64,000 nucleotides of DNA from Actinomycetes bacterium (lineage in GTDB: Bacteria > Actinomycetota > Acidimicrobiia > Acidimicrobiales > JAMCPL01), in the NCBI GenBank assembly GCA_021841005.1, contig JAKBVZ010000010.1, positions 6,302 through 70,301 on the forward strand, written 5' to 3'. The notes under the pieces are model-generated. The model searched no databases and was not told the DNA's origin. It saw nothing but the letters and a program-made list of their open reading frames with translations. Position numbers and translations under genes: made by a program. Positions 821 through 48,871 of the stretch are shown one piece after another (position 1 is the stretch's first letter; the number at the start of each line of letters is the position of its first letter).

Positions 821-830
821 GAAGGAGCGG

Positions 831-15404: not shown

Positions 15405-15480
15405 CCGGTTAGTGCTTGCCTACCAACGTTTCGGTATCCACCTGCAACGGTAACCCATAGTGGCTCTGCGACAGCTGGAG

Positions 15481-15567: not shown

Positions 15568-15842
15568 AGGCAACACACGCAAGTATCTACTGGACCACCT
15601 GCCATCGGTGACGCAAGGTCGGCTGAGCCGTTGCTAACCGGTTGAGCCGTCGCCAATGGCTCAACCCAGTGGACATCCATGAAATCCTACCAGCAACGAC
15701 ACTGCAACCAGGTGCCGACAGCTGTCGCCCAAACCAGCCACCACCATATAGATGCGTACGGACGCTACAACCAAGTACCACCAACTGTAGCACGTGCGCA
15801 GGATGCACTGGTGCATTCGCCAAGCCAAGCGAGCGTTCTCGT

Positions 15843-16451: not shown

Positions 16452-16747
16452 AGACCTCCAATCTGCCCACTATGTAGCAACCGGCATGGCACGCCTACAG
16501 GCCACGCATCATTGCTCGGCATAACCCACGATCCGGCAACATGCGCCATGGGAGCAAGCAACATCGTATCGCCATACCCGCAGCACCGCACCGGCGGCAC
16601 TTCTCAATACAGTTTATCGCCTGGTTCGCATCTCGAATCGGTTGGGCATGAAAATCCTGATACGGGTGAGCAGGCTGGCGACGTTGCGCCCAAAATAGCT
16701 ATGATATCTTATGGTTCTTCGGTATCCGGCCAGTGGGACGTGCCCTG

Positions 16748-19428: not shown

Positions 19429-19474
19429 GAGGCAGTTCCCACTATCGACAATCTTCCACTCCAGACATCGGCGT

Positions 19475-20482: not shown

Positions 20483-20485
20483 CGC

Positions 20486-21097
20486 CTATCCAGTCTTCAA
20501 CAGGAATAGACAGCTGAACAGCCCTATCCACATAATATCTACAAAATGCCAATAGTAGCTCACTCCTTGGAATACGCTCAGCTCTCCCGGATCTCCCGAC
20601 GCTCCACGCATCCTCATAAGCAGGAACAGCATCGCCACCAGCCCCAACAAGACATGCAGACCGTGCAGACCGGTCATCAGGAAGAACAATGATCCATACG
20701 CGTTGGTATTCGCACGCGTTGTCAATGTGACCCATTCCACACCTTGGTTGATCACGAAGGCAAGCCCCAAGATAAAGCTGATCACCACCCAACGGCGTGC
20801 CTTCGCCCGGTTGCCCTTTTCAATTTCCCATACAGCCTTTTGCATGGTAGGACTGGACGCCAGTAGAACAACCGTAAAGATGGATGCCTGCACCAGATCA
20901 AGCTTGGTCCCGGGCGGTGGCCATACAGCGGCATGAGCACGTATAGTAAAATAGGCAGCAAACAGCCCGCTGAAGAACATCATTTCGGACCCGAGCCAGA
21001 TCAGTATGCCGACACCCAGTAACGAGGGACGCTCGAATTTGCGCCTCACCCTGTCTCCATCGAGACCCACCGGCTCGAACGTCATTGTCTGGGCCAT
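20486..21097 (-). CDS. ctaE: Cytochrome c oxidase subunit III
   Basis: 203 aa polytopic protein with CtaE-like sequence (TGLHGLHVLLG), directly upstream of qcrC. Confidence 0.9.
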   Translation of the reverse strand: MAQTMTFEPVGLDGDRVRRKFERPSLLGVGILIWLGSEMMFFSGLFAAYFTIRAHAAVWPPPGTKLDLVQASIFTVVLLASSPTMQKAVWEIEKGNRAKARRWVVISFILGLAFVINQGVEWVTLTTRANTNAYGSLFFLMTGLHGLHVLLGLVAMLFLLMRMRGASGDPGELSVFQGVSYYWHFVDIMWIGLFSCLFLLKTG

Positions 21098-21411
21098 GTC
21101 AATTACCTCGCCTGCCAGTGAATACCATTGAAATCACCGGCCCACCACGGATGCCTAGTATAGTTGGTCCTGTTCCCATTTTTTCCCTGCTTCCAATCCC
21201 GTCGTCCGTTCCCATTCCATTCCCTGCTCCCACCACCTTCCCATGCAGTCCTTCCATACCGGCAGCCATCATTCAGGCTGCATGGCAATCAAACTGTGCC
21301 GGCACCCCTGTTCGCTGCAACCAAGGCCACCGCAAACCAGATTAGCTGAACGCCGACATCTTATCAAAATACCTGGTACATAGTCACATTACAAGTCATG
21401 TTGCAAGAGGC

Positions 21412-24051
21412 TCAGCCGCGCGTTTCCAGATGGCTCAGCAACTTCGGCAACGTACCTGAATACACTACATAAAGTGCCTTGGTAGGCCGCGTCATCGCTA
21501 CATACAAGCTGCGCAGTCCCATGGGGTACTCATCTATGACACCTGCTGGATCTACGACAACCACTGTATCGAATTCCAGACCATTGGCCATCGCTGCGGG
21601 CACCACACTCAGCCCGGATGCCACGCCGGTACCACCGCTAACTTGCGTGACATCCCTTCCTACATTGCGAAGCGCTCCGGCAAGATCCTCGCAGAGTGAG
21701 GCAGGCGCAATCAAGGCGCATGTGCCCGCCGACTCCGGAGTGTATATATCTCCGATAACGCCAGCCACGCCTATCCCTATCTCCCCCTCCACCCTGATTG
21801 CGGCAGGACGTACACCCGCCACGCGAAGCGTTCTCGGGACAGTGCGCTCCACCATATACGCAGCAAGGACGGGTTCGGCTGCTTCCAGTATCTCTCGCGG
21901 TGTACGGTAACTCACCGTCAGCTCAACGACATCAATGGTCCTCTTCAAATGCATGTGAGCAAGCACATCGTTCCACGATGAAGGAGGGTCGGGACCCACT
22001 GCCTGCGCTATGTCCCCGGCAAGCGTCATGTCCCCCGAGAGGGAGCGCCGCGCTATGACACGCAACTCCATCGCAGAAAGCCCTTGGGCCTCATCGACCA
22101 CTATATAGCCATACTTCCTGGCTCGATCGTAGTCAGGGTGGCCACTAGCTGTGTAATGACCTGCCGGGCCGTGACGGTCATATGCACCAGGTCCACCGAC
22201 ACCAGCATGGGGCTTCCTCCTGGCTGCATTGCCGTCGAGTGGACCAAGCAGCGTCCTAGCCTCATCCAGCAAGGCTACATCCTCCTGCGACCATCGTGTA
22301 CGCGAGGAACTCGTGTACCCCTCCGTGCCCGTGCTGGCGTCTCCACATCGTCGTCTCTCCAGCAGCGCCAGTTCCTCTGGATGGAAGATCCCTTTCCCAG
22401 CTGCAGTAATAAGGACACTGGAACTGAAGAGATCGTAGAGGAACTCTTCTGCTGCCAGCCGAGGCCACATCCTGTCAAGAGCTATCTGCAGTTCCGGCAC
22501 TCTGAGCAAGCGACGGATCGTCCTGGCATCCAGCTCTTCCTGCGACACCAGTCCCTCTTCTTCGATCTCGGCTGGGAACGCTGTATCCGTACCTTCCACC
22601 CAAAGCCCACCAGACGCCTGATCGTCAGACGCCTGATCGTCAGCGCCGTCACTGCTTGGAGCGCTTCGGGCATCCGGAAAACCTTGGGAACCTTGGGAAC
22701 CTTGGGAACCTTGGGAACCTTGGGAACCTTGGGAACCTTGGGAACCTTGGGAACCTTGGGAACCTTGGGAACCTTCCATCTGCATGAGCATCGGACCATC
22801 CGTCTCCTGCTCAATGCAGGGCTCGATCTGGTCGCTGGAGATCCACCCCTCCGCAGCCTTATCAGGACGGACTTGCCTGACCCGGCTTGCTCTTTCCTTG
22901 TACTGTTCGAGCAGGTACCTGCATACCAGTGTTTCCAGGTACCGCCTCTTCACGTTGTGCGTTCCCTTGCGTGCTTTCACCTCTGCCACGAATCCAGCGC
23001 TTTGCGCAGCAGGGAGAACAAGCATGGTGGAACCGAAGGGTATCTCGCAATCATGCCGGAGGGGGCGCTGCCGGGTCCTCACGGCCCTACGTAGCAAAAC
23101 CGCCATACGAGCATCACCCTTGACCTTGGCGGTCATAAAATTATCCTTGTAGCTTGCCCGTATACCCCGTACAAGCCCCTGAACCGACGAGAGTGTGACG
23201 CCGCTCTCCCCCAGAGAAGGTAGTACGTGCTCTATATACCTCAAGAACACCGGGTTTGGGCCAACCACCAGCACGCCCTGAGTTTCCAGAGGAAACCGAT
23301 GAGTATAAAGAAGGTAAGCAGCCCTGTGCAATGCTACAGCCGTTTTACCGGTACCCGGCCCTCCCTGAACAACCAGAACTCCGCGGATGGGAGCCCTGAT
23401 TATTTCGTCCTGCTCGCCCTGTATGGTGGAGATCATGTCGCTCATACGTGAATCCCTTGGTCGTTCCAGCGCCGCAAGCAGGGCCCCAGGTGGCCCTGGA
23501 TCCACAACCTCCTCGCCGGCTCCGTTACCACCTTGCAACTCTCCGGCATCCGTCTCGAGCGAAAATCTTTCATCCTCGATAGATAGAACCTTCCGAGAGG
23601 CTACTTCTACGTGACGCCTCAGCACCAGCCCCATGGGATCCCGTCCAGTGGCGCGATAGAACGGCTCAGCGACGGGGGCTCTCCAATCGACCACCAATGG
23701 GTCCAAATTCTCATCCAGTATGCCCAAACGTCCGATATGGTAGGTTGCCTTGCCATCCTGTTCGCCTGACACATCGATGCGACCGAACAGAAGTGGCCTG
23801 TTGCCCACATCCGTCCGGGACATGGTACGCAAAATAGACTCAACCGCAGCATCACGTTCGAAACGCCCCTGGTGGGTACCTCCTCTATCCTGGCGGTACA
23901 GCCCAACCAGGCGCGATCTGGCACCAGCCGTCAGCTCTGCAAGCCTACGGTAGGCATTATCCAGATGAGCCTGTTCCAGAGCTATTTCTTGCGCCAAGGA
24001 TAGTTGCCGTGAAGAACCAGGAATGGTTTCACCCGTGCCAACGCCCTCCAT
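21412..24051 (-). CDS. helD: HelD-like UvrD-family helicase (RNA polymerase-associated)
   Basis: HelD N-terminal signature VVDWRAPVAEPFYRAT, Walker A GGPGTGKT and a UvrD C-terminal domain. It contains a (GSQ)10 insertion. Confidence 0.8.
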   Translation of the reverse strand: MEGVGTGETIPGSSRQLSLAQEIALEQAHLDNAYRRLAELTAGARSRLVGLYRQDRGGTHQGRFERDAAVESILRTMSRTDVGNRPLLFGRIDVSGEQDGKATYHIGRLGILDENLDPLVVDWRAPVAEPFYRATGRDPMGLVLRRHVEVASRKVLSIEDERFSLETDAGELQGGNGAGEEVVDPGPPGALLAALERPRDSRMSDMISTIQGEQDEIIRAPIRGVLVVQGGPGTGKTAVALHRAAYLLYTHRFPLETQGVLVVGPNPVFLRYIEHVLPSLGESGVTLSSVQGLVRGIRASYKDNFMTAKVKGDARMAVLLRRAVRTRQRPLRHDCEIPFGSTMLVLPAAQSAGFVAEVKARKGTHNVKRRYLETLVCRYLLEQYKERASRVRQVRPDKAAEGWISSDQIEPCIEQETDGPMLMQMEGSQGSQGSQGSQGSQGSQGSQGSQGSQGSQGFPDARSAPSSDGADDQASDDQASGGLWVEGTDTAFPAEIEEEGLVSQEELDARTIRRLLRVPELQIALDRMWPRLAAEEFLYDLFSSSVLITAAGKGIFHPEELALLERRRCGDASTGTEGYTSSSRTRWSQEDVALLDEARTLLGPLDGNAARRKPHAGVGGPGAYDRHGPAGHYTASGHPDYDRARKYGYIVVDEAQGLSAMELRVIARRSLSGDMTLAGDIAQAVGPDPPSSWNDVLAHMHLKRTIDVVELTVSYRTPREILEAAEPVLAAYMVERTVPRTLRVAGVRPAAIRVEGEIGIGVAGVIGDIYTPESAGTCALIAPASLCEDLAGALRNVGRDVTQVSGGTGVASGLSVVPAAMANGLEFDTVVVVDPAGVIDEYPMGLRSLYVAMTRPTKALYVVYSGTLPKLLSHLETRG
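22611..22640. repeat. In-frame tandem duplication, 15 bp x2, in helD (DDQAS x2)
   Basis: CAGACGCCTGATCGT occurs twice. Confidence 0.9.
22681..22776. repeat. Perfect 9-bp microsatellite (GGAACCTTG, ~10 units) in frame in helD, encoding (GSQ)10
   Basis: Nine perfect units at 22687-22767 plus partial flanking units. Confidence 0.95.
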
Positions 24052-24400
24052 ATCTCAACTCCATCCTTTCATACTGCCGCCCAAAACGGATCAATCCGCC
24101 TCCACCAGGCTGACGTGTTCCTGAATCACCAGGCTCTGCGCTCGTAGGCGGCACATCAAGCGCATTTACCGTAACAATCGAGACATATTATTATAGTCTA
24201 AATCCTCCTTGGATAGCCGATCTGAGTGCCACTACGACCCACTGCAGCAGGTGATTCTGCCGATTCGCAGCCTGTAGTGGGTCGCTACATCCTGGTGCTG
24301 TTGCGACAACACCCCCCGGCAGGGATAATGTGCAATTATGTCCCCATCCAGAGACGCACGCCCGCAACCCCCCGTCCAGAAGGACGGAACAGCTCACAAC

Positions 24401-25553: not shown

Positions 25554-26654
25554 ATGATCGGCATACTACTGATGGCGCACGGAACTCCAGCTGATTCTCA
25601 GGAAATACCGTCATTTCTCGAGTCCATACGCTCGCACAAGCCGTCGCAACCGGAACTGGACGACCTAGAGAAACGTTACCAAGCGATAGGCGGGATGTCT
25701 CCCCTGGCTCAGCTCACGGAAGTACACCGCGATAACCTCGTCCAAGTACTGGACGACAAGTATCCGGGCCGGTTTGCGGTAGCGGTAGGAATGAAGCATG
25801 CCAAGCCATCCATAGAAGACGGTCTGGCTTCACTGGAGCAGGCAGGTGCGGCAAGTATAATAGGATTGGCCCTTGCTCCCCACTACTCACGGGCTAGCAT
25901 AGGCGACTATGAGAACCGCGTACGTGCAGCAATGCGCCTTGACCTCAGCACCGACTCTCGTACAACTTTCCGCATGGTGAAGTCATGGCATCTCGCTCCA
26001 GGACTTATAGAACTCTGGTCTGAACGGATCAAAGATGCAATCGTCTCGCTGCAAAGTGTGATAGAGAAAGAAACGGGGGGCAAATCGGCAAGGCAGGAGG
26101 GGTCGGCAGGGCAAGAACAATTAGCGGAACAGGAGAAGCCGGCAGGCCAGGAAAGGCCAGAAAAGTCGGGTGCCGGTATGCCGGATGACCCTGGATCGGC
26201 TGGCAACGACTCCGCGATACATGTGATCTTTACTGCGCACAGCCTCCCGGCACGCTTGACCGACCAAGGCGATCCTTATGCTGGGCAGGTCAATGAAACT
26301 GCTGCCGCCATAGCCAAGCATGCCAGTCTCGAGCACTGGTCCGTAGCATGGCAAAGCGCCCCCATGCACATCAGAGAACCTTGGCTGGAGCCTGACGTGA
26401 AGGATGCTATAAGTGCTCTGGCAGATACCGGGTGCAAGGCCGTGGCCATCTGCCCGGTAGGGTTCGTATCAGATCATCTGGAGACTCTCTACGATCTCGA
26501 CATAGTCGCCCGAGAGTCGGCGAATCTCGGAGGTATCGCTTTCGACCGGTGCAAGTCTCTCGACCACGACATGCGACTGGCCGAAGTGCTGGCAAGCATC
26601 GTCTACATGGAAATGAATGGGAGTGAGGAGATGGGAATGAGGAGATGGGAATGA
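25554..26654 (+). CDS. hemH: Ferrochelatase (coproporphyrin ferrochelatase type)
   Basis: Ferrochelatase motifs (LLMAHGTP, FTAHSLP, CPVGFVSDHLETLYD). A low-complexity insert of about 40 aa is present. Confidence 0.9.
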   Translation: MIGILLMAHGTPADSQEIPSFLESIRSHKPSQPELDDLEKRYQAIGGMSPLAQLTEVHRDNLVQVLDDKYPGRFAVAVGMKHAKPSIEDGLASLEQAGAASIIGLALAPHYSRASIGDYENRVRAAMRLDLSTDSRTTFRMVKSWHLAPGLIELWSERIKDAIVSLQSVIEKETGGKSARQEGSAGQEQLAEQEKPAGQERPEKSGAGMPDDPGSAGNDSAIHVIFTAHSLPARLTDQGDPYAGQVNETAAAIAKHASLEHWSVAWQSAPMHIREPWLEPDVKDAISALADTGCKAVAICPVGFVSDHLETLYDLDIVARESANLGGIAFDRCKSLDHDMRLAEVLASIVYMEMNGSEEMGMRRWE

Positions 26655-26657
26655 GGA
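26625..26657. repeat. 14-bp tandem duplication (x2.4) spanning the hemH stop and the hemY RBS/start
   Basis: GAGGAGATGGGAAT at 26625-26638 and 26639-26652, then GAGGA. Confidence 0.9.
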
Positions 26658-28396
26658 TAGCCATCATAGGTGGGGGCATCTCCGGGCTGGTTGCCGCCAG
26701 ATCTCTGTCTATTGCCGCCCGCTCTGGCGAGTTTGGCGGAAATCTGGATGTCGATCTGTACGAAAGTACCGGTAGCCTTGGTGGCAAGCTCTCCAGCACC
26801 GATTTTGCGGGAGTAACCGTGGATACCGGACCTGAATCCTTCCTGGCTCGCCGTCCAGAGGCGGTAACGCTCTGCAGAGAACTCGGCCTCGAAGATCATC
26901 TTGCCCCCCCTGGAGCTTCTGGAGCATTCATAGCCATCGGCGACGATCTCAAGAGAATCCCATCCAATCTTGCCCTCGGAGTGCCAACACGCTTGGGACC
27001 GCTCGCACGGTCTGTATTGGAGCAACGTATATTGACTTTTCGTGGCATGTCCCGTTTTGCCGCTGGCTTCCTCTTACCCTCGCTACTTCCCGCGGACATC
27101 CACGTAGACGGACACCACTATCCAGCGTTCTCGCACACAGCCGCCGATGATGCAGATCTCGGGAGGCTGATCGAGCGGCATATGGGTCGCGAGGTCGCCA
27201 GGCACCTGGCTGATCCACTGATAGGGGGCATTCATGCCGGAAGCATCTATGGCATGAGCGCGGCAGCGGTGTTCCCTCCCATATTCGAAGCAAGCAAGGA
27301 ACGCGGCAGCTTGGCGGTCAATCTGGCTCGCAGGATGTCTGCCGGTGGACCTGCCAATAGCCGCAGCAAGCATCGCGACCATGACGCCGGTGACAACCAC
27401 CGTGCAAGCCCTGGTAGCAGTGGTGGCCCTAGTGTCAGCAACAGCTCTGGTAGTGCCGCGGCTCCTGTATTCTATGCCCTCGAGGGAGGCATGAGCACCC
27501 TGGTACGTGCGCTGGAGAATGACATAATCCACCGGGGAGTCACGATCCACAAAGATACACCTGTAGTTGCCGTGGACAGGCTCCGGGGCAAATGGCGTCT
27601 AGCTGTAAGTACACCCACGGGTACGGCTAAGCGAGCAGGCAGCAGTGGAAGTGGAAGTGGAAGTGGAAGTGGAAGTGGAAGTGGAAGTGGAACGGATGTC
27701 GGGGTAGTCACGGGGGCAACAGCAATGACGGGTGCAAGACAAGGTACAGACGCCAAGGAAAAAGGAGACGGCGGGAACAAGCCTGGCGGCGGCCAAGACA
27801 CCTACGACGGTATCGTACTTGCATTGCCGGCTGGTGCCGCAGGAAGGCTTATCCAGCCTATTGCTCCTGAGGTTGCCCGTATGCTGTCGAGAATACCTTA
27901 CGCCTCGGTATCCGTGGTCACCCTGCATGTCGAGCATCCGGCAGCGAACGACCTACCGGACGGCACAGGGTATGTCGTACCAGCAGACAGCGGGCAGATG
28001 GTAACGGCGTGTACGTTCCTCTCGAAAAAGTGGCCTCACCTCGCGACCGGTCGCGGGTCCCTCTTGCGAGTATCCCTCGGGCGCTACAGAGACAGCCGGC
28101 ATCTCTCCCTTGACAAGCAGGGCCTAGTCGAAACTGTGACTACCGAGTTGGAGCAGATGCTTCACCGGCATATCGATACCCGCGCTTCGCTCGTTACGCG
28201 TTGGATGGACGCTTTCCCACAATATCGTGTCGGGCACCTTGCCATGGTGGAGCAAATCCGCCGCACCCTTCCTGAGATCGGACCAGTCTCACTAGCTGGT
28301 GCAGCTTACGGAGGTGTAGGGATACCGGCATGCATCAAGAGCGGCCATGATGCCATGACATCCATCCTCGAACAGCTACGGAACGCCACATGGTAG
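26645..28396 (+). CDS. hemY: Protoporphyrinogen/coproporphyrinogen III oxidase (HemY/CgoX)
   Basis: FAD-binding N-terminus IAIIGGGISGL and HemY-family similarity. It follows hemE and hemH. Confidence 0.85.
   Translation: MGMRIAIIGGGISGLVAARSLSIAARSGEFGGNLDVDLYESTGSLGGKLSSTDFAGVTVDTGPESFLARRPEAVTLCRELGLEDHLAPPGASGAFIAIGDDLKRIPSNLALGVPTRLGPLARSVLEQRILTFRGMSRFAAGFLLPSLLPADIHVDGHHYPAFSHTAADDADLGRLIERHMGREVARHLADPLIGGIHAGSIYGMSAAAVFPPIFEASKERGSLAVNLARRMSAGGPANSRSKHRDHDAGDNHRASPGSSGGPSVSNSSGSAAAPVFYALEGGMSTLVRALENDIIHRGVTIHKDTPVVAVDRLRGKWRLAVSTPTGTAKRAGSSGSGSGSGSGSGSGSGTDVGVVTGATAMTGARQGTDAKEKGDGGNKPGGGQDTYDGIVLALPAGAAGRLIQPIAPEVARMLSRIPYASVSVVTLHVEHPAANDLPDGTGYVVPADSGQMVTACTFLSKKWPHLATGRGSLLRVSLGRYRDSRHLSLDKQGLVETVTTELEQMLHRHIDTRASLVTRWMDAFPQYRVGHLAMVEQIRRTLPEIGPVSLAGAAYGGVGIPACIKSGHDAMTSILEQLRNATW
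27647..27688. repeat. 6-bp microsatellite (GGAAGT x7) in frame in hemY, encoding (GS)n
   Basis: Seven perfect units. Confidence 0.95.
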
Positions 28397-30742: not shown

Positions 30743-30850
30743 ATGTCATACGCTCCAGTTACAGGTCGTTACAACGTTCTAGATACGCTACGGCCACTAT
30801 GCCGTAGCCCGGGGGAGATGCCATACGCTCCAGTTACAGGTCGTTACAAC
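30743..30850 (+). repeat. Variant hairpin element (30776-30817) flanked by a 33-bp direct duplication (32/33 identical, period 75)
   Basis: The duplicated sequence is ATG(T/C)CATACGCTCCAGTTACAGGTCGTTACAAC. The hairpin GCTACGGC-CACTAT-GCCGTAGC carries a compensatory stem pair. Confidence 0.9.
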
Positions 30851-33384: not shown

Positions 33385-33459
33385 CGGGAAGTAGCGCAGT
33401 TTGGTCAGCGCGCAGCGTTTGGGACGCTGAGGCCGGGGGTTCGAATCCCCCCTTCCCGA
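33385..33459 (+). tRNA. tRNA-Pro (anticodon TGG)
   Basis: Hand-folded cloverleaf: acceptor CGGGAAG/CTTCCCG, anticodon stem CAGCG/CGCTG with loop TTTGGGA, T arm GGGGG-TTCGAAT-CCCCC; 75 nt. Confidence 0.9.
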
Positions 33460-33547
33460 CCGCTACATCATCGTCAGTCCGCTGCGGCCACTATGCCGCA
33501 GCTCGTGCATGTTCGAATCCCCCCTTCCCGACCGCTACATCATCGTC
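33439..33547 (+). repeat. 35-bp hairpin element (33476-33510) flanked by a perfect 37-bp duplication of the tRNA-Pro 3' end plus trailer
   Basis: GTTCGAATCCCCCCTTCCCGACCGCTACATCATCGTC occurs at 33439-33475 and 33511-33547. The insert is AGTCCGCTGCGGCCACTATGCCGCAGCTCGTGCAT. Confidence 0.95.
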
Positions 33548-35276: not shown

Positions 35277-36992
35277 CTATCTTACTCTTGCACGAAGGCG
35301 CACACCGGGAATCAGCCGCGGTATATCTTCATCTGCATCTGCAATGGCTGTGCCGGCATGCTCCGTACCGGTGTCATTTGTGCCGGCATGCTCAGTACCG
35401 CCGACACCCAGCCGGAGCGCCTTATCCCTTACCGGTACCGGATACTCTCCGGTCAGGCAGGCGGTACAGAAACCTCCACCGGGCACTCCAATGGCCTTGT
35501 AGAGGCCTTCAAGGCTCAAGTAAGCGAGCGAGTCGACTCCCAGGTATCCTTCTATTTCTCTGACCGTCCTGTTGGACGCCAGCAACTCTGATCTCTCAGG
35601 GGTATCTATGCCATAAAAGCACGGCCACCGGAAGGGTGGGGAAGAGATACGTAAGTGCACCTCCCTGGCTCCTGATTCCTTGAGCATCCTCACCATCTCC
35701 CGGGTAGTGGTCCCTCTCACGATCGAGTCATCCACTACGACGAGCCGCTTCCCTGAGATGGATTCCTTCAGCGGGTTGAGCTTGCGCCTTACGCCTCTAA
35801 CCCGGGCCATCTGGCCAGGAGTGATAAACGTACGCCCGATATAGCGGTTCTTTACAAGTCCTTGGCCGTAAGGGATGCCGCTTGCCTTGGAGTAGCCCTC
35901 TGCTGCGGGGACACCCGAATCTGGAACGCCCATCACCATATCTGCACGAACGGGTAACTCGGCTGCCAGGTACTCACCCATCCTCCTCCTCGCCCCATGC
36001 ACCTCGGTTCCGTAAAGATTGCTGTCAGGCCGCGCAAAGTAGACAAACTCGAATATGCACAGGTGCGGATCGCCGGCTCCCGCAGGCGACAGACGCAGCG
36101 ACCGCACCCCGCCCGCATCTATCACCACCAATTCACCCGGCTCGATCTCACGCAGGAACCTTGCTCCGATCACATCCAGAGCAGGCGTCTCAGAGGCAAG
36201 GACATAGCCTGGTTCCCCACCTGCTACACCTACTCCACCCTCCAGAGGTCTGCTGCGGCCACTATGCCGCAGCCCGTGCACTGGTTCCCCACCTGCTACA
36301 CCTACTCCACCCTCCAGTCCACCTGGTACGCCTGATCCCCGCTCACCATCTCTGGATACACCGTTCGATCCATTACCTGGCAGCACACCGAGGCACAGCG
36401 GCCGGAAGCCGTCCGGATCCCTCGCTCCGAAGATATGCTTGGCATCCATCGCTACAAACGAGTAGGCACCCTGCAGCCTGGGGAGCACTTCCACCATCGC
36501 CGCTTCCAACAACCCATCATTACCGGTACCGGCTCCTGTCCCAGCCCCCCTGGACGCCATTGCTCGCACTACAGCCTTGGAAAGCAGCTCCATCACAAAA
36601 TCGGAATCGGTGGTCAACACCTCCGGTATCATCCCAGCTTCCAGCCCAAGCTCCTCCACGTTGGTCAGGTTGCCATTGTGCGCAAGAGCCAGTGAAGCAC
36701 TCCCGACCGACCTGAATACCGGCTGGGCATTCCGCCACGTCGAATCGCCGGCAGTGGAATAGCGAGTATGGCCTATAGCAATACTTCCCGGCAGGCAACC
36801 GATGGTGCGCTCGTCGAAGACCGACGATACGAGGCCCATGTCTTTCACTACGGTTACAAGCTCGCCGTCACTCACGGCCATACCTGCTGATTCCTGGCCA
36901 CGGTGCTGCAGTGAATACAGGCCGTCAAAAGTAAGCTGTGCCGCTCGATAACCGGGGGCATACACCGCAAACACCCCGCAGGCCTCCTTCAT
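35277..36992 (-). CDS. purF: Amidophosphoribosyltransferase
   Basis: Propeptide plus N-terminal Cys (MKEACGVFAV), PRTase motif VVVDDSIVRGTT. It carries a 72-bp in-frame insertion at 36209-36317 and a long C-terminal tail. Confidence 0.9.
   Translation of the reverse strand: MKEACGVFAVYAPGYRAAQLTFDGLYSLQHRGQESAGMAVSDGELVTVVKDMGLVSSVFDERTIGCLPGSIAIGHTRYSTAGDSTWRNAQPVFRSVGSASLALAHNGNLTNVEELGLEAGMIPEVLTTDSDFVMELLSKAVVRAMASRGAGTGAGTGNDGLLEAAMVEVLPRLQGAYSFVAMDAKHIFGARDPDGFRPLCLGVLPGNGSNGVSRDGERGSGVPGGLEGGVGVAGGEPVHGLRHSGRSRPLEGGVGVAGGEPGYVLASETPALDVIGARFLREIEPGELVVIDAGGVRSLRLSPAGAGDPHLCIFEFVYFARPDSNLYGTEVHGARRRMGEYLAAELPVRADMVMGVPDSGVPAAEGYSKASGIPYGQGLVKNRYIGRTFITPGQMARVRGVRRKLNPLKESISGKRLVVVDDSIVRGTTTREMVRMLKESGAREVHLRISSPPFRWPCFYGIDTPERSELLASNRTVREIEGYLGVDSLAYLSLEGLYKAIGVPGGGFCTACLTGEYPVPVRDKALRLGVGGTEHAGTNDTGTEHAGTAIADADEDIPRLIPGVRLRARVR
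36209..36317 (+). repeat. 35-bp hairpin element (36246-36280) flanked by a perfect 37-bp duplication, in frame inside purF
   Basis: CTGGTTCCCCACCTGCTACACCTACTCCACCCTCCAG occurs at 36209-36245 and 36281-36317. The insert is AGGTCTGCTGCGGCCACTATGCCGCAGCCCGTGCA. The 72-bp total equals 24 codons. Confidence 0.95.
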
Positions 36993-37290: not shown

Positions 37291-40200
37291 TTACCCATTC
37301 TGCCGGGATGGCCGCTGTGCTGACCGGTCAGTCGCAGAACGGTTGGCAACCGAGATCAGCTTACCGACCACTGGAAAATCCACCAGCGCCTCAGCCCTGA
37401 AACAGGCCAAGCCAATGGGGAGGGCATATTCAGGGGAATCAAACACGACGTAGCGAGGATACCACTCCGGTCTGTACTTAGCATTGAATTTGAGCAGGGA
37501 CTCCATCTGCATCACGTTGGACATCCTCTTGTAGGCCCAATGCTGGAAACGCTGCGTTGCTCCACTGCCTCTCTCCCGGTCAAAGACCGCCCGCATCGCC
37601 GCAAAATTCAAGCTGAGCTTTTCCTTTCCCATCTTAGCGAGATGAAAAATGGTAAAGCAGAGGGCGAAATCTATCAATCCATTGGGATGTCCACCTTCCT
37701 TGTCCCATCTCATGAGATCCAGAGAGAAGCCATTTACAGCTGGAGCAGGCACGAAATGGCACAGGGCAGCAATCTTCCCGCCAGGATCCCGCACGACGCA
37801 GATCAGGGTACCCTCGTCCCTGGCATCGCATATCCTGCCCAGCATCATGGAAAATCCGCGCTCCACGTTTCCCCTCCTGGCCGCTTCGAGCAGGGGCTGT
37901 ATCTCATCAAGGAACGTGGTGCACCGCACGGCTGCACCCTTCTCACCTGGTTCCTCACCGGCACCGCTCTTGGTGACAAACTCCCCCCCCGACAGCTCGA
38001 ACAGAGCTGCACTGTACCCTTTGTTCTGAACGCGGTTGTAGGCTTGGCGGAGCCCCTTCATTGAGTTGCCTTTCAACGAGAATTGCTGGACATCCACTAT
38101 ACCCTCGTCTCCAATATACATATATCGCATACCACTATGCTGGTAGATCGGCAACCACTCCTCAGAGGCACCGATAATGGCTATCACCCACCCCTGCCGA
38201 TCAGCCATCTGTTTGAATGCCTGCCACGCCAACTCCCTCTCGCTGTACGGCCCTATTGGATCCGGCGAGACAACGCATACGCCGCTGATTACGCCATAAG
38301 CAATCACGGAGTTCCTGAAGAAGAACCACGTCTTGTCGTCCCTGAGAGCGAAAAAGTCTAGAGTACCACCCCCGTAACGCTCTACGATATTCCTTGCCCT
38401 GATGGCATCCATCTCGGGATCACGATGCAGTAGATGCACTCCACCCGACAGCACAGGACGCGTAATGACCCAGGTGAGCACGGCAACAAGCACAAAACCC
38501 GTAGCCAGCAACGCCGGCGAAAGGAAGCTGTCCAGGCGGTGAGGCAACGTTATCTCGTGAACTCCCACCAATCTTGCAGCAACAGCTTCGAAGGCGGTAA
38601 CGATGCTCAAGCCATTACGTGATCCGTCGCTGTCCACGCGAGGCGCGTATACCACGACTGCCGTTGCGACAACCACAACGCTCAGACAACCTCCAAGGAT
38701 CCATAGCAGCGTATTCTGGATATACGCCAAGTCCATGGATGCCCTGAAATAGCTACGGTTCAAGACAAGGAAAACCAGAGCGGCAGCCGTGAGCAACATG
38801 GCAACAAGACTGCCGCCTCTTATAAGATGGAACGCCAGGGAAGCAGCAAGCACCATAACAGCAATCCGGTAGGCATTCTTCTGCCCTCTTCTGATTCCTC
38901 GTGCAAGAGCGAGTAGGGACAGGCCTGTCAGCACGATCAGCGCTCCGGCAGCCTGGGCAGCCACCAGTGGAAGCACCTGCAATACAATATGCATACGCTC
39001 CCTGAGCGGCGGAACCACGCCTGATATGAAATCAGTGAGACCCGCTATTCCTATGGCAACTGCGGCTACACGCCTTACCCGTGCGGCACTGCGGTGTGAC
39101 CTGAGTGCCTCCATGGCCTGCTCTCCACGGGGCCAAGTCATCCCCGGTTGCCCCGCCATCCCCGGTTGCCCCGCCATCCCTGACGACCATGTGGCAGCAA
39201 GCTCAGGATGCCGCGCGGGTTCGCAGCCATAATGTCGCTGTAGGATCCTCTCCAGCCAGTAAGGAGATCTTACCGGCTCCCTGCCCACGAAAAGCCTTAC
39301 CCTTAGCTCCGCTCCACCCTCCAACTCGATCCAGGATGCTTGTGCCGCATCGACAAAGATCGATGGAAGCCCGAAGTGGGCAGGATATTCATGCGTCACC
39401 GTACTGACACTTCCTGAACAGGCAAAGAACCGCTCGCCCTGCGAGGTGCTCGCCGATTCATCCCGAACGGCGCCTTGGTATGACAGCTCAGGTTCGAGGG
39501 AGGCACCCGTGATAAATCCTTCATAACCATCAGCCAGCACCCAGCGTGCATAGCTCCTGATTGGATCGTTGATTATGCCGGTACTGGGCAGCAGACCAGC
39601 AGATCTGCCAGCAAGCCCCGATCCATCTGTATCGCCGTTTGCCGCCACTGTGGCTTTCCATACCTTATGGGTAAGCCAGAGAACCGCAACGGCAAACAAC
39701 GCAACCTCCACCAGCAGGCCGCCTATTGCAGTTGCCAGTCTCACACCCCACTGGAATCTGTAGACATTCATCACCACTTTTCTCGGAGCCGGATGCGATC
39801 TTAGGGCATGGGAGAGCAAAACCACCACGACTGGTATCTTCAGCGCCACGACTATGAGAATCGGGAGGAGTAGCACCCACGCATACTTGCTGAGTCTCCT
39901 GTAGACAAGGCGGGACAGTACAAAGCGCTTGGTGGCAGTGAGGTCGGACAGCCTGGACACGCCTTTGTCCAACTTGCCGTGCCGTAAATCTGGGTCACTC
40001 TCACCCGGACGTTTCTCCATCATGCTAGAGAGTGCGGCTGAACCCGCCTCCACATGTACCACCCTGTCACCATTCGCAGTATGAAATATAAGATCAGCTA
40101 CGGGCATCACTTCGAGTCCCATGGAACGTAGACGTTCTGCAACTGGACCACCCTCGTAACTCTCATGGCCACCTGCGCGTTCTTGCCTGCCGGCCACTCC

Positions 40201-40770
40201 GGGCGTTGCCCCATTTGCCTGGCCTCCGGGCGTTGCCCCGCCTCCCGTAAGCCCTGAATCTTCAATCATGTCCCGTAAAATGATGACCCGCCTCTGATCG
40301 CCGGCGGCGAAACGGCTCAGCCTCTCGAAAAAGTCGCTATGAGATTCAATGGCATCCAACTCCGCCTCTGCCCTTATGTCACCCTTTGCGACAACCCCGC
40401 CCGCCCTCAAGGCTATAGCGGGCATCTCGACATTGTTCTGCTGCGCCCCATCATCCACGCGACGTAGATCACCGACCGCTTCTGGATGGGATGGCTGATA
40501 TTGCGACCGCAGTTTGCCTGGCGCACTCCCTGGGGAGCTGCATGCAGTATCAAAGAGTGCCCCCGCTATCAGAAGTATTCCTCCACCTACCCACTCATCA
40601 AGCTGCCGGCCCAGTAATCCTACGGCGCGGAGCGACTCTTCCGTCGTTTCCCTGGAAAGTAGCAGATTGGATACGACCATCACCCTGTCGCCGGTACGTA
40701 CCTCGACATTATTAGCTGCAATATTACGGGCACCGTGAAGCACCCTGGTCGAATCATCCACCAAGACCAA
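37291..40770 (-). CDS. MprF-like aminoacyl-phosphatidylglycerol synthase/flippase with an extra N-terminal domain
   Basis: C-terminal DUF2156/LPG-synthase-like domain (GGTLDFFALRDDK...), a central polytopic region and an unrelated N-terminal domain of about 300 aa. The start is uncertain (TTG 40770). Confidence 0.7.
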   Translation of the reverse strand: MVLVDDSTRVLHGARNIAANNVEVRTGDRVMVVSNLLLSRETTEESLRAVGLLGRQLDEWVGGGILLIAGALFDTACSSPGSAPGKLRSQYQPSHPEAVGDLRRVDDGAQQNNVEMPAIALRAGGVVAKGDIRAEAELDAIESHSDFFERLSRFAAGDQRRVIILRDMIEDSGLTGGGATPGGQANGATPGVAGRQERAGGHESYEGGPVAERLRSMGLEVMPVADLIFHTANGDRVVHVEAGSAALSSMMEKRPGESDPDLRHGKLDKGVSRLSDLTATKRFVLSRLVYRRLSKYAWVLLLPILIVVALKIPVVVVLLSHALRSHPAPRKVVMNVYRFQWGVRLATAIGGLLVEVALFAVAVLWLTHKVWKATVAANGDTDGSGLAGRSAGLLPSTGIINDPIRSYARWVLADGYEGFITGASLEPELSYQGAVRDESASTSQGERFFACSGSVSTVTHEYPAHFGLPSIFVDAAQASWIELEGGAELRVRLFVGREPVRSPYWLERILQRHYGCEPARHPELAATWSSGMAGQPGMAGQPGMTWPRGEQAMEALRSHRSAARVRRVAAVAIGIAGLTDFISGVVPPLRERMHIVLQVLPLVAAQAAGALIVLTGLSLLALARGIRRGQKNAYRIAVMVLAASLAFHLIRGGSLVAMLLTAAALVFLVLNRSYFRASMDLAYIQNTLLWILGGCLSVVVVATAVVVYAPRVDSDGSRNGLSIVTAFEAVAARLVGVHEITLPHRLDSFLSPALLATGFVLVAVLTWVITRPVLSGGVHLLHRDPEMDAIRARNIVERYGGGTLDFFALRDDKTWFFFRNSVIAYGVISGVCVVSPDPIGPYSERELAWQAFKQMADRQGWVIAIIGASEEWLPIYQHSGMRYMYIGDEGIVDVQQFSLKGNSMKGLRQAYNRVQNKGYSAALFELSGGEFVTKSGAGEEPGEKGAAVRCTTFLDEIQPLLEAARRGNVERGFSMMLGRICDARDEGTLICVVRDPGGKIAALCHFVPAPAVNGFSLDLMRWDKEGGHPNGLIDFALCFTIFHLAKMGKEKLSLNFAAMRAVFDRERGSGATQRFQHWAYKRMSNVMQMESLLKFNAKYRPEWYPRYVVFDSPEYALPIGLACFRAEALVDFPVVGKLISVANRSATDRSAQRPSRQNG
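39141..39180. repeat. 18-bp in-frame tandem repeat (x2.2) in the mprF-like gene (GMAGQP x2)
   Basis: TCCCCGGTTGCCCCGCCA at 39141-39158 and 39159-39176. Confidence 0.9.
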
Positions 40771-41934: not shown

Positions 41935-43932
41935 ATGACAAGCTCATTCTCTTGGAGGCTGCCCGAGAAGGACAAACCCTGGGTAATGAGAACCTACTCC
42001 GGGCATTCAAGCGCCGCCGCCTCCAACGAACTCTACCGTTCCAACCTCGCAAAAGGGCAGACGGGCCTTTCCGTGGCCTTTGACCTCCCGACACAGACCG
42101 GCTACGACCCGGATGAACCTGAGGCCAGGGGCGAGGTAGGCAAAGTCGGAGTTCCTGTTGTGCATCTTGGGCATATGCAGCAACTGATGGACTCCATACC
42201 TCTGGACAAGATGAACACATCCATGACCATCAATGCCACCGCACCATGGCTACTCAGCCTCTACATAGTACAAGCAGAGAACTCAGGCGTGGACCGGAGC
42301 CTGCTTACAGGAACCACGCAAAACGATATACTAAAAGAGTACCTGTCCAGAGGCGCATTCATATTCCCGCCGGCGCCGAGCCTGCGCCTTACCGTAGACC
42401 TGATCACCTACTCGGTGAAACACGTACCCAAGTGGAATCCCATGAACATTTGCGGGTACCACCTTCAGGAAGCCGGAGCAACCCCTTCTCAAGAAGTGGC
42501 TTACGCACTTGCCAATGCCATCGACGTGCTCGATGCCGTGAAGAGATCCGGGCAGGTGGATGACGACGACTTCCCTCGCGTCGTGGGTAGGATGTCATTC
42601 TTTGTCAACTCTGGGATAAGATTTGTGGAAGAAACCTGTAAGCTTAAGGCGTTTGCGGCCAATTGGGACAGGATATGCAGCGAACGTTACCACGTCACCG
42701 ATCCCAAGCTGAGACGCTTCCGCTATGGAGTGCAGGTAAACTCTCTTGGCCTCACCGAAGCACAGCCCGAGAACAACATCGCCAGAATCATCCTCGAAAT
42801 GCTGGGCGTAACCCTGTCGCGTTCTACAAGGGCGCGAGCAGTGCAACTCCCTGCATGGAACGAGGCACTGGGCTTGCCACGCAAGTGGGATCAGCAGTGG
42901 TCCTTGAGAATGCAGCAGGTCATGGCGCTGGAGACAGACCTACTTGAATACCCTGACATATTCGAAGGATCAAGAGTCATCGAGTCCGCGGCTGTGCACA
43001 TAGCAGAGGAAGCGTGGGCGGAGATGGAGGAGATCATCGCTCTGGGAGGCGCCTTCTCCGCAGTGGATGAGATGAAAATGCGCCTGGTTGCAAGCCAGCG
43101 CCGGCGGGTAAGCAGGATCGAATCGGGAGAGCTTCCGGTCGTGGGAGTCAACTGCCACCGCGAAACCGAGCCATCGCCCCTTGACAGCCGGGACGGCGCT
43201 GCAAACGTGCTCAAGGTAAATCCAGCCATGGAGAAGGAGTTGAGGGAAGAAGTGGAGAAATGGCGTTCCCGCAGGAACGCAAGAGATGTCACGCGAGCGA
43301 TCGATAGGTTGAAATATGCCTGCCAATCGGGAGAAAATATCATGGAAGCATCCATAGATCTCGCAAGAGCAGGTGGTACGACCGGCGAATGGGCAGGCAC
43401 GCTCCGGGACGTGTTCGGCGACTACAGAGCTCCTACTGGCGTCGGCGGCGCAAAGGTAAACGGCTCTCGTGAGGAACTCCGCACAGCGGCTGGTAAGGTA
43501 CGAGCACTATCCGCAGGCTCAGGATCCGCACCACGCATCCTGGTGGCAAAGCCAGGCCTGGATGGTCACTCCAACGGGTCCGAGCAGATAGCACTGGCCG
43601 CCAGGGATGCTGGCTTCGAGGTCATATATCAGGGGATCCGCACCACACCGGAACAGATAGCATCAGCCGCCAGGGATGAGGATGTCGACCTCGTCGGTAT
43701 ATCAATACTCTCAGGCAGCCACATGGAGCTCATACCGGAGATACTGGACCTGCTGGCCACCTCGGGCGTAAACGCCCCCGTAGTGGCCGGTGGGATCATC
43801 CCACCGGACGATGCCGCCATATTGATGCGTCAAGGTGTACGAGCCATATACACTCCCAAGGATTTCAAGCTTGGCGATATCATAAGCGATATGGCGGACT
43901 TGGTAAAGGAGTACCGTTCCATCCGGGCATAG
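41935..43932 (+). CDS. Fused acyl-CoA mutase (catalytic plus B12-binding domain; MeaA/ethylmalonyl-CoA mutase-like)
   Basis: PWVMRTYSGHSS and GTTQNDILKEYLSRG in the barrel, and a C-terminal B12 domain (KPGLDGHSNG); 665 aa. Confidence 0.75.
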   Translation: MTSSFSWRLPEKDKPWVMRTYSGHSSAAASNELYRSNLAKGQTGLSVAFDLPTQTGYDPDEPEARGEVGKVGVPVVHLGHMQQLMDSIPLDKMNTSMTINATAPWLLSLYIVQAENSGVDRSLLTGTTQNDILKEYLSRGAFIFPPAPSLRLTVDLITYSVKHVPKWNPMNICGYHLQEAGATPSQEVAYALANAIDVLDAVKRSGQVDDDDFPRVVGRMSFFVNSGIRFVEETCKLKAFAANWDRICSERYHVTDPKLRRFRYGVQVNSLGLTEAQPENNIARIILEMLGVTLSRSTRARAVQLPAWNEALGLPRKWDQQWSLRMQQVMALETDLLEYPDIFEGSRVIESAAVHIAEEAWAEMEEIIALGGAFSAVDEMKMRLVASQRRRVSRIESGELPVVGVNCHRETEPSPLDSRDGAANVLKVNPAMEKELREEVEKWRSRRNARDVTRAIDRLKYACQSGENIMEASIDLARAGGTTGEWAGTLRDVFGDYRAPTGVGGAKVNGSREELRTAAGKVRALSAGSGSAPRILVAKPGLDGHSNGSEQIALAARDAGFEVIYQGIRTTPEQIASAARDEDVDLVGISILSGSHMELIPEILDLLATSGVNAPVVAGGIIPPDDAAILMRQGVRAIYTPKDFKLGDIISDMADLVKEYRSIRA

Positions 43933-48760: not shown

Positions 48761-48871
48761 CGGTACAACCGCACCAGGCATTACGGGCAAGGCCACATAC
48801 CGATTGCAATTGGCTATGACGGCACGATAGAACTTCGGTACAACCGCACCAGGCATTACAGGCAAGGCCAC
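48761..48871 (+). repeat. 36-bp direct repeat pair (35/36 identical) separated by a 39-bp unique insert (period 75)
   Basis: CGGTACAACCGCACCAGGCATTAC(G/A)GGCAAGGCCAC occurs at 48761-48796 and 48836-48871. Confidence 0.9.

Follow-up and report, generated by a model that had tools for sequence, protein, structure and literature searches.

The purF gene in the 64,000-nt stretch of Actinomycetes DNA analysed here (the window) carries a 35-nt insert between two identical copies of a 37-bp sequence, and this feature probably arose through the recent insertion of a mobile DNA element that is very small and non-autonomous. A conserved core dispersed over several loci, its presence or absence at otherwise identical sites and the accompanying duplications of local target DNA together argue that the element is mobile.

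An in-frame insertion in purF

The host gene and the parts of the insertion are the following.

35277 to 36992, minus strand: purF (amidophosphoribosyltransferase), 571 aa, host of the insertion, assigned from the open reading frame, Pfam and the match to PDB entry 1AO0.
36209 to 36245, plus strand: left copy of the 37-bp target duplication (CTGGTTCCCCACCTGCTACACCTACTCCACCCTCCAG), which encodes LEGGVGVAGGEP on the minus strand and is present once in the empty allele of contig L011.
36246 to 36280, plus strand: 35-nt insert AGGTCT-GCTGCGGC-CACTAT-GCCGCAGC-CCGTGCA, which encodes VHGLRHSGRSRP in purF and is absent from contigs L011 and L012.
36281 to 36317, plus strand: right copy of the 37-bp target duplication, identical to the left copy.

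Pfam detected GATase_6/7 and Pribosyltran in the 571-aa open reading frame, and 1AO0 (B. subtilis PurF) matched the product with 412 bits (E = 3.5e-122). The predicted Cys5 (in CGVF) aligns to residue 1 of 1AO0, and the sequence alignment continues through the putative PRTase domain. As judged from this homology, the product is PurF, with an N-terminal Ntn glutaminase domain and a PRTase domain as in the B. subtilis protein.

The initial annotation of this DNA had described the two 37-mers and the 35-nt insert, with their coordinates, correctly in all details. It had also proposed a hairpin, and this was borne out by folding: the core (36252-36273) forms an 8-bp stem (36252-36259 with 36266-36273) and a CACTAT loop, with a folding energy of -10.6 kcal/mol as DNA (z = -2.4 compared to shuffles). 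The repeats scored 74, against 30 or less in shuffled flanks, and an unbiased scan of shuffled windows yielded no purF-like structure. The added 72 bp equal 24 codons, and the open reading frame reads through, as had been claimed; the minus-strand translation is ...LEGGVGVAGGEP-VHGLRHSGRSRP-LEGGVGVAGGEP-GYVLASETPALD, with the frame unbroken. The identical 571-aa protein was present on 19 contigs from NCBI and ENA assemblies, and the filled loop was also found in a JGI contig. The filled purF allele is common in the population.

The loop that holds the insertion has 57 residues (205-261) in the window PurF and 2 in 1AO0. Subtraction of the 24 inserted residues leaves 33 that predate the insertion, in line with the earlier estimate of a segment already about 30 aa longer than usual. 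Mapped on the structure, the insertion site aligns to the 2-residue turn of 1AO0. The loop is strongly length-variable among PurF relatives, and in a predicted model of low quality (mean pLDDT 55) the site is coil with pLDDT of about 25, flanked by two strands. All three observations agree with the suggestion that this is a permissive loop.

Empty and filled alleles

An empty allele of purF was found in contig L011 (Logan SRR25885120), which is 100% identical to the window over the 13.4 kb compared, except for one gap. Its purF is exactly 72 bp (24 aa) shorter, as expected from the initial annotation; it contains one 37-mer and no insert, and encodes a protein of 547 aa (P0001). The insert is likewise missing from the sister species (contig L012), whose PurF is 88% identical in a local alignment, which indicates that the insertion is the derived state. 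The earlier reading of a recent insertion with target duplication thus gained both an empty allele and, as described below, a hairpin that is dispersed and mobile. Within this species, the empty purF allele is represented by a single Logan contig. Logan contigs are assembled with k = 31, which is below the length of the 37-nt repeat. The same contig breaks inside the other 37-mer, which argues that the assembler does not silently collapse such loops.

Presence or absence of a 72-bp segment was seen at two more places in the window.

33385 to 33461, plus strand: intact tRNA-Pro(tgg) (ARAGORN; Rfam tRNA, 70 bits), whose last 23 nt (33439-33461) lie within the duplicated target of the next element.
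33439 to 33547, plus strand: second fresh insertion, with a 37-nt repeat (33439-33475), a 35-nt insert (33476-33510) and a 37-nt repeat (33511-33547); 72 bp shorter in contig L009.
14383 to 14484, plus strand: third fresh 72-bp insertion, intergenic, with perfect 30-nt repeats (14383-14412 and 14455-14484); empty in contig L014 and filled in contig L013.

Contig L009 is shorter by exactly 72 bp at the tRNA-Pro site, where the insert reads AGTCC-core-TCGTGCAT. At site 14383, the repeats extend to about 35-37 nt if a 1-nt slip is allowed, and the insert (42 nt, or 35-36 nt) is not the hairpin; it starts with AG and ends with CCTGTGCA. The empty allele at this site comes from an ENA contig whose name (k141) points to an assembly at k = 141, with which the short repeat could not have been collapsed. 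There are thus three clean 72-bp presence/absence sites among assemblies 99.8-100% identical to the window, and these three are the only large indels between the window and those assemblies. None of the three empty sites holds any trace of the insert. Beyond what had been annotated, the purF insertion is therefore one of several with the same geometry, and two further sites are polymorphic.

These comparisons bear on whether the structure is an error that metagenome assemblers made at a palindrome. Although every sequence used comes from a metagenome assembly, and the 37-nt repeat is longer than k = 31, we consider such an artefact exceedingly improbable. The filled allele is common to NCBI MAGs, ENA k141 contigs and a JGI contig, its junction k-mers must be present in the reads, the repeats of older copies have diverged, and frames are kept in two genes. 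Moreover, the repeats are direct, whereas palindrome artefacts would be inverted.

A family of dispersed hairpins

The purF hairpin belongs to a family with a 32-nt core, TCY-GCTGCGGC-CACTAT-GCCGCAGC-YCGTGCA, usually extended to 35 nt by variable end bases. Five clear copies of the core occur in the window, where 0.06 would be expected by chance; three further core sites lie in another locus of the same species (L020/L021/L022, from the same MAG series) and two in a second Actinomycetota MAG (L001 and L002). In all, at least 10 copies of this non-coding, small, multi-copy element of 32-35 nt were found in about 150 kb of two genomes, and the 32-nt core is conserved across the 10 copies aligned. 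One compensatory pair was seen in the stem, no better than in shuffles (94/500). The hairpin is conserved by identity, and any structural role is putative.

Long flanking duplications are present at nine of the ten copies, as locus-specific direct repeats of 24-39 nt with a period of 68-75 nt (modal 72); for four of the five window copies the period is 71-75 nt. The ...YCGTGCA end usually abuts the repeat, and the other end carries 0-8 variable nt, often AG or AGG. The ends RG-TCY... and ...YCGTGCA are not complementary, and the 8-bp inverted repeat is internal. In the fresh 35-nt inserts (purF and tRNA-Pro) the palindrome is centred within 1 nt (6+22+7 and 5+22+8).

A second in-frame copy interrupts an L,D-transpeptidase (YkuD) gene in L002, which reads ...SWSYDPAGNHT-IPSAAATMPQPVQR-QSYDPAGNHT..., and in L020 the insertion has duplicated the ribosome-binding site and ATG of thiS. 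The thiS site is an A-B-A-B-A array with a period of 68, and the left end AGGTCT is common to this array and to the purF copy. Extra degenerate units are present at the site in L002. The thiS array and the L002 units show that slippage or unequal exchange can expand an existing site, and one could propose that the A-B-A structure in purF was made with no mobile element, by slippage, template switching at a quasi-palindrome, tandem duplication or a similar local error of replication or repair. We regard this as highly improbable, since the insert bears no relation to its surroundings, recurs in identical or nearly identical form at no fewer than 10 unlinked loci of two genomes, and has left no trace at empty sites.

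Collections were also scanned with the hairpin core. A non-exhaustive scan of a genome collection returned two loci in one MAG only, and a scan of viral contigs returned none. Six loci from a non-exhaustive metagenome scan were rejected, since all were unrelated coding sequences with non-complementary arms. These scans missed the JGI contig that carries the filled purF, which shows that they were not exhaustive. No Rfam family matched the hairpin. A five-frame peptide profile for in-frame copies gave 11 candidates with one match (P0121, a spurious ORF), which led to locus L020; a sharper single-frame profile detected no in-frame copies.

Other sites in the window

The window contains further members and related structures.

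30743 to 30850, plus strand: older member with 33-nt repeats (1 mismatch; 30743-30775 and 30818-30850), period 75.
2681 to 2786, plus strand: older member between two ABC-transporter genes, with degenerate 35-nt repeats (2681-2715 and 2752-2786), period 71; fixed in contigs L018 and L019.
789 to 823, minus strand: intact member (z = -3.8) without flanking repeats, midway between two convergent genes whose stop codons are each 7 nt away.
48761 to 48871, no strand assigned: unrelated, unique 39-nt insert (48797-48835) between 36-nt repeats (1 mismatch; 48761-48796 and 48836-48871), period 75.
19402 to 19498, no strand assigned: probable decayed member at the qcrC/qcrA junction, with 26-nt repeats (2 mismatches; about 34-37 nt when degenerate positions are included), period 71.

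In the hairpin of the 30743 copy (30787-30808), one stem pair has changed in a compensatory way (G>A / C>T), and the insert at 19402-19498 retains AG...CACTAT. At 2681-2786, the left repeat contains the stop codon of the upstream gene and the right repeat the GTG start of the downstream ORF. Neither of the unique inserts (14383 and 48761) recurred in any locus examined.

An unbiased scan for repeat-insert-repeat structures, in which spacings of 40-140 nt were allowed, placed all nine non-tandem hits in the window at 63-75 nt, and seven of the nine at 71-75 nt; five shuffled windows gave no hits. Two hits were set aside: that at 43579 (period 69) is a conserved repeat, shared with the sister species, within a methylmalonyl-CoA mutase gene, and that at 15695 (period 63) was too weak. 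The lengths of the perfect repeats vary (24, 27, 30, 33, 36, 37 and 37), and the sum of repeat and insert is constant. The recurring quantity is the 72-bp footprint and not the 37-bp repeat alone, a point that the initial annotation did not contain. Inspection by eye of about 11 targets revealed no convincing target-site motif; CATACG is common to three targets and GTTC to three others, both too weak to count.

Proposed mechanism

The filled sites suggest how an element of this kind could insert. The target would be nicked once on each strand, with an offset of about 37 bp, and the element would be joined between the nicks, precisely at its ...GTGCA end and less precisely at the other. Filling in of both single-stranded gaps would then duplicate about 37 bp of target and add 72 bp in all. 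The mobilising enzyme would act in trans. Genes for a transposase, Cas protein, RAYT or reverse transcriptase were found neither in the window, nor in about 20 kb beyond its ends, nor near the other copies; we thus infer the staggered cut from its product only. The search for such an enzyme covered about 40 ORFs from the window, L001 and L002, by Pfam, and the gene tables of L009-L022. It gave housekeeping genes only in the element-bearing genomes, and the sole transposase-like match was a weak ISL3 hit in the sister-species locus L012, which itself has no copies of the element.

Because the core is open in five of its six frames and the added 72 bp make up 24 codons, insertions into coding DNA would stay in frame. 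Such frame-neutral insertion is how purF and the YkuD transpeptidase gene would tolerate the element in disordered loops. The long duplication, in turn, would regenerate what the cut would destroy, namely a tRNA 3' end, overlapping stop and start codons, or a ribosome-binding site with its ATG. The varying repeat length is not predicted by a simple fixed-stagger model unless one junction is error-prone, and the intact copy at 789-823, with no duplication, runs counter to the model. The non-hairpin inserts at 14383, which has only its ends in common with the hairpin, and 48761, which has nothing in common with it, suggest that the process is not strictly specific to one element.

The junctions could also reflect target-primed reverse transcription, in which a nicked target primes the copying of a small hairpin RNA that ends in ...GUGCA-3', and a second-strand nick about 37 nt away gives rise to the duplication. 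A precise YCGTGCA junction with a ragged other end resembles the 3' and 5' junctions of retrotransposition, and the duplication length is variable (24-39 nt). This route is nevertheless unlikely: fresh inserts are constant at 35 nt and not 5'-truncated, and the variable left end AGGTCT was inherited (purF and the thiS array) and is thus not random filler. No reverse transcriptase was seen in the loci examined, and the constant 72-bp sum is not accounted for either.

By analogy, the duplication of about 37 bp and the insert of 35-39 bp have the geometry of a Cas1-Cas2-type integrase. It is possible, if doubtful, that the insertions were made outside an array by a host CRISPR adaptation integrase (Cas1-Cas2, Cas1-solo or a casposase relative). 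On this view the duplicated DNA of about 37 bp would stand in for the CRISPR repeat and the 35-39-bp insert for the spacer, with the hairpin as a prespacer that is favoured, or parasitic, and the two unique inserts (14383 and 48761) as ordinary ectopic spacers. The modal duplication of 37 bp, inserts of 35, 35, 35-42 and 39 bp and a unit of about 72 bp are in keeping with this, as are the occupation of the same architecture by unrelated inserts and the centring of the palindrome in the two fresh 35-nt inserts, which a ruler would produce. Precedents for off-target integration are documented at repeat-like sites for P. furiosus Cas1-Cas2 (PMC6698737) and were detected in E. coli in vivo (Nivala et al. 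2018, cited by PMC7054753), and errors in repeat length are expected where ruler motifs are absent (PMC4872114).

Several results stand against such an integrase. Neither a cas gene nor a CRISPR array was present in the approximately 150 kb examined, the targets have no evident motif in common, and, unlike spacers, one 32-nt sequence recurs at no fewer than 10 sites in two species. IMG/VR viral contigs held no exact match to the hairpin or to either unique insert, and BLAST matches of the hairpin in phage and plasmid records were at chance level only. Against the CRISPR repeat families of Rfam (CRISPR-DR), the best matches, the hairpin scored 12 bits, far below the cut-off of 35, and it was not seen as an array in the genome and metagenome scans, which were not exhaustive.

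We tentatively suggest a new class of mobile DNA, in which a 32-35-bp hairpin, shorter than its own duplication of about 37 bp, would be mobilised in trans. The enzyme would be either the integrase of CRISPR adaptation, with the element a parasite of Cas1-Cas2, or another integrase with a stagger of about 37 bp. With its 72-bp footprint and five open frames, the element would colonise coding sequence and give rise to new peptide loops in housekeeping proteins, and its duplication would repair what it interrupts. If true, no kind of mobile DNA known to us would be smaller or have a larger target duplication relative to its size, and the geometry would point to a CRISPR-adaptation-type integrase acting on ordinary chromosomal sites in nature. 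In a natural population with coexisting filled and empty alleles, the frequency at which Cas1-like enzymes strike the chromosome, and the birth of CRISPR-like units, could be tested directly. A housekeeping enzyme would have gained a protein loop of 24 frame-neutral codons, half of them copied from the neighbouring peptide. Such repeat-insert-repeat units are also prone to be miscalled as mini-CRISPR arrays, break short-k assemblies and give spurious ORFs (P0121).

Comparison with known systems

A hairpin element with duplications of about 37 bp was not found described in our literature search, and we know of no transposon family that such an unusually long target duplication matches. REP and REPIN sequences (RAYT, Y1 HUH) resemble the present element as GC-rich imperfect palindromes of 20-40 nt that are non-coding, lineage-specific, dispersed and mostly intergenic, often at gene ends. 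According to PMC3733652, REPs carry a GTAG or CGTC tag beside the stem; the element has neither, and has YCGTGCA instead. REPs are strictly extragenic and lack target duplications, in contrast to the two intragenic in-frame copies and the long duplications at nine of ten sites described above, and the inverted doublets of REPINs are absent here.

Like MITEs, the element is small, non-autonomous and multi-copy, with presence/absence polymorphism and target-site duplications. MITEs have duplications of 2-10 bp and terminal inverted repeats, whereas here a duplication of about 37 bp exceeds the 32-35-bp element, the inverted repeat is internal, and the ends (AG... and ...GTGCA) are dissimilar. 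The in-frame palindromes tolerated as extra peptides recall the Rickettsia palindromic elements, which form surface segments in protein genes. Those elements are about 100-150 bp long and confined to Rickettsia, and we know of no long target duplications associated with them. Casposons would, by analogy, share integration by the Cas1 family, a fixed, longer-than-usual duplication and a tRNA 3' end as target. They prefer tRNA 3' ends, have duplications of about 14-15 bp, reach kilobases in length and carry a polymerase gene of their own, unlike an element of 32-35 nt with a duplication of about 37 bp.

In a genuine CRISPR array the repeat is constant; here the flanks differ at each locus and are host genes, and the common sequence is the middle part. 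The sites also differ from ectopic (off-target, neo-CRISPR) Cas1-Cas2 integration, in that the 'repeats' are ordinary host DNA (purF coding sequence, a tRNA 3' end, gene junctions) and the 'spacer' is mostly one conserved hairpin in two species, with no cas genes or arrays in about 150 kb. Two inserts are unique and most sites carry the same hairpin; a viral or plasmid source was not found. About eight sites in 84 kb is, to our knowledge, a density far above that of any reported ectopic Cas1-Cas2 integration. CRISPR systems with 36-37-bp repeats, such as the DR locus of M. tuberculosis, have spacers of 35-41 bp, and Cas1-Cas2 is the only enzyme family known to us that makes fixed duplications of 28-37 bp, with inserts likewise of 35-39 bp. 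The likeness to ectopic Cas1-Cas2 integration lies in a spacer-sized insert, a target duplication of about 37 bp and a unit of about 72 bp, together with an architecture that inserts of unrelated sequence can occupy and the more precise joining of one end.

Insertion in purF and its empty site

Re-reading of the sequence bore out the repeats, hairpin and intact frame described in the initial annotation. Identical 37-mers at 36209-36245 and 36281-36317 enclose a 35-nt insert (AGGTCTGCTGCGGCCACTATGCCGCAGCCCGTGCA) with an 8-bp stem and a CACTAT loop (-10.6 kcal/mol folded as DNA, z = -2.4), and the protein reads LEGGVGVAGGEP-VHGLRHSGRSRP-LEGGVGVAGGEP-GYVLASE across them. The repeat score of these flanks was never approached by shuffled flanks.

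35277..36992, minus strand: host ORF, PurF, 571 aa (Pfam; 412 bits to B. subtilis PurF, 1AO0)
36209-36317: purF site, in frame inside the gene; perfect 37-nt repeat, 35-nt insert, period 72

The empty purF that had been predicted exists in L011, a Logan contig (SRR25885120), which is exactly 72 bp shorter, carries a single 37-mer and lacks the insert. This contig is 100% identical to the window across the 13.4 kb compared, barring this one gap, and its 547-aa PurF (P0001) is the closest relative of the window protein, differing solely by a clean 24-residue gap. Logan assemblies presumably use k = 31, below the repeat length; the contig terminates 30 nt into the perfect 37-mer of the tRNA-Pro site, indicating that its assembler breaks at such loops and does not skip them silently. 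The filled 571-aa protein was found, exact, on 19 contigs of NCBI and ENA assemblies, and the same filled loop on a JGI contig, and is therefore no assembly accident. The insert is absent from the sister species (L012; PurF 88% identical in the local alignment), as are another 51 bp, so that the insertion is the derived state. These 51 bp (window 36318-36368, 17 aa, GSGVPGGLEGGVGVAGG) lie beside the 72-bp insertion; the PurF loop thus grew in several steps, to which earlier, decayed insertions may have contributed. Elsewhere in L012 (14184-14927), an ISL3-like transposase fragment and a PIN-domain gene stand where the window has tRNA-Pro and an ArsA-like operon, which marks a synteny break.

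The population assemblies were 99.8-100% identical to the window, and the only structural differences found among them were three 72-bp indels and one 18-nt difference in tandem-repeat length. At site 14383, L014 (an ENA contig) is exactly 72 bp shorter and L013 is filled; the name k141 of L014 points to an assembly at k = 141, at which so short a repeat could not have collapsed. L009, a contig of an NCBI MAG, lacks exactly 72 bp at the tRNA-Pro site, though its purF is filled. Three such indels in a nearly clonal population are what recent insertion, or very recent precise loss, would leave behind. The recent event proposed for purF agrees with presence and absence of the 72 bp between otherwise 100% identical contigs, very recent precise loss being the alternative. 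Another ENA contig, L016 (k141_83463, 14311-24311), tracks the window as far as the genes for the S8 peptidase and fumarase and then enters another region, where a second dprA-comM pair lies; the contig is either chimeric, from a related strain or the product of a rearrangement.

Proposed tolerance of the PurF loop

The position equivalent to the insertion in 1AO0 is a two-residue turn (M185 to A188), as against 57 residues in the window protein, in line with the earlier remark that this loop is unusually long. Loop length at this point differs widely among relatives. An AlphaFold model from a shallow alignment was poor overall (mean pLDDT 55), with residues 208-258 modelled as coil (pLDDT ~25) between strands 200-204 and 262-266. 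Because of the turn in 1AO0, the variable relatives and the predicted coil, the idea of a permissive loop appears reasonable.

A family of hairpin inserts

Ten aligned copies share a 32-nt conserved core, TCY-GCTGCGGC-CACTAT-GCCGCAGC-YCGTGCA, which occurs five times in the window (0.06 expected by chance). Besides the purF copy, these are:

33439-33547: tRNA-Pro 3' end; perfect 37-nt repeat, 35-nt insert, period 72
30743-30850: divergent intergenic region; 33-nt repeat with 1 mismatch, 42-nt insert, period 75
2681-2786: between two ABC-transporter genes; degenerate 35-nt repeat, 36-nt insert, period 71
789-823: between two convergent stop codons; 35-nt insert, no flanking repeat or duplication

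The left repeat at the tRNA-Pro site holds the final 23 nt of the tRNA, which is still intact. The copy at 30787 shows a compensatory change in its stem; stem covariation across the copies was not significant, and a structural role of the hairpin is therefore unproven.

The same element is present in a second Actinomycetota MAG, upstream of dnaX (L001) and inside a YkuD L,D-transpeptidase gene (L002), which reads through in frame as ...SWSYDPAGNHT-IPSAAATMPQPVQR-QSYDPAGNHT... Within the window's own species, the element was found at another locus (L020) via P0121 (10001-10168), a publicly annotated 55-aa 'protein' that is a spurious ORF spanning two hairpin copies upstream of thiS. At the start of thiS lies an A-B-A-B-A array of period 68 with an RBS and ATG in every repeat, giving short upstream ORFs; another copy at this locus has a flanking repeat that is perfect over 27 nt, at a period of exactly 72. 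The purF copy and the thiS copies have the AGGTCT end in common, so this end was inherited and is no random filler.

Same architecture with other inserts

We scanned the window without bias for any direct-repeat pair spaced 40-140 nt. All nine non-tandem hits fell at 63-75 nt spacing, seven of them at 71-75 nt, and the same scan of shuffled windows gave no hits. Three sites were added:

14383: perfect 30-nt repeats (~35-37 nt with a 1-nt slip), period 72
48761: 36-nt repeats with one mismatch, unique 39-nt insert, period 75
19402-19498: decayed structure at the qcrC stop/qcrA start junction

The insert at 14383 is not a hairpin, yet begins AG and ends CCTGTGCA, as the family does. At 19402-19498, a ~20-nt motif (CGACAATCTCCTATCCAAGA) occurs three times at 35-36-nt spacing within a 71-nt repeat structure, and a single insertion does not account for the history of this site. 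One hit, of period 69 (43579-43680), lies in the gene for methylmalonyl-CoA mutase; the repeat is also conserved in L012 (2963) and was rejected as a protein-level repeat.

Other repeats and gene features

Three further tandem repeats lie in coding sequence:

22680-22775: perfect 9-nt repeat AACCTTGGG x10.7 in an 879-aa UvrD-like helicase ORF (21412..24051, minus strand), an in-frame tripeptide expansion labelled 'Collagen' by Pfam
27644-27692: hexanucleotide AGTGGA x8.2 in an amine-oxidase-like ORF (26645..28396)
39139-39180: 18-nt repeat x2.3 in an MprF-like ORF (37291..40770), encoding GMAGQP repeats

The amine-oxidase-like products have 575 aa in L009 and 581 aa in locus L010 (6 aa), and L009 differs from the window by 18 nt in length, which looks like a coding VNTR polymorphism within the same population. 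Together, the three repeats suggest that housekeeping genes of this genome accept in-frame expansions readily. Apparent fusions were seen of hisD and hisC (11570-14203, 877 aa, Histidinol_dh + Aminotran_1_2) and of NAPRTase and isochorismatase (5775-7640, 621 aa). The Pfam domain of a DprA homologue (62869-63999) was matched as two separate stretches, indicating an insertion inside the domain.

Discussion

One short DNA occurs at unrelated sites, always bracketed, the copy at 789-823 apart, by a duplication of the local sequence, and unoccupied sites hold this local sequence once. Insertion probably proceeds by two nicks on opposite strands ~37 bp apart, integration there and then gap filling. 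The reaction would be polar, one element end being joined differently from the other; usually there is nothing between the ...YCGTGCA end and the repeat, whereas 0-8 variable nucleotides, frequently AG or AGG, lie at the opposite end. At the four fresh sites the perfect repeat measures 37, 37, 30 and 27 nt, yet the sum of repeat and insert is exactly 72 bp at each; repeat bases that do not match are confined to one of the two copies and always adjoin the insert. This points either to one error-prone junction or to a measured total length, and for the latter we can name no mechanism.

Transposon target duplications are as a rule 2-15 bp, and those of casposases ~14-15 bp. To our knowledge, fixed duplications of 28-37 bp, a range that includes the ~37 bp seen here, are known only from spacer integration by Cas1-Cas2, where it is the CRISPR repeat that is duplicated. 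Insert lengths of 35-39 bp are likewise what a ruler-type integrase would give, as is the palindrome, which lies within 1 nt of the centre of each fresh 35-nt insert. Off-target Cas1-Cas2 integration is on record (PMC6698737; Nivala et al., 2018, as cited in PMC7054753). We nevertheless regard a Cas1-Cas2-type integrase as a possible but doubtful source of the insertions, because no cas gene was seen in the ~150 kb of loci covered, repeated insertion of the same 32-nt sequence in two species is the behaviour of a transposable element and not of spacers, and no source was found for the unique inserts in IMG/VR viral contigs or in these loci. Conjecturally, a hairpin element parasitising an adaptation integrase would reconcile these findings.

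The 72 bp equal 24 codons and five of the six core frames lack stop codons, so that insertion into a gene would add a peptide and not destroy the gene. The long duplication would regenerate the tRNA 3' end, the overlapping stop/start codons at 2681-2786 and the RBS and ATG of thiS. Such frame-neutral, target-regenerating insertion would explain why the surviving copies are found where genes meet and in disordered loops of proteins.

We class the element as a small non-autonomous mobile element with exceptional integration geometry. We found no description of such an element in the literature searched; that it represents a new class is a tentative and rather unlikely proposition. It lacks the terminal inverted repeats and short duplications that define MITEs, the GTAG or CGTC tag, absence of duplication and extragenic location that define REPs, and the defining features of genuine CRISPR arrays. 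Its mode of action is closest to ectopic Cas1-Cas2 integration, and its appearance to that of a REP.
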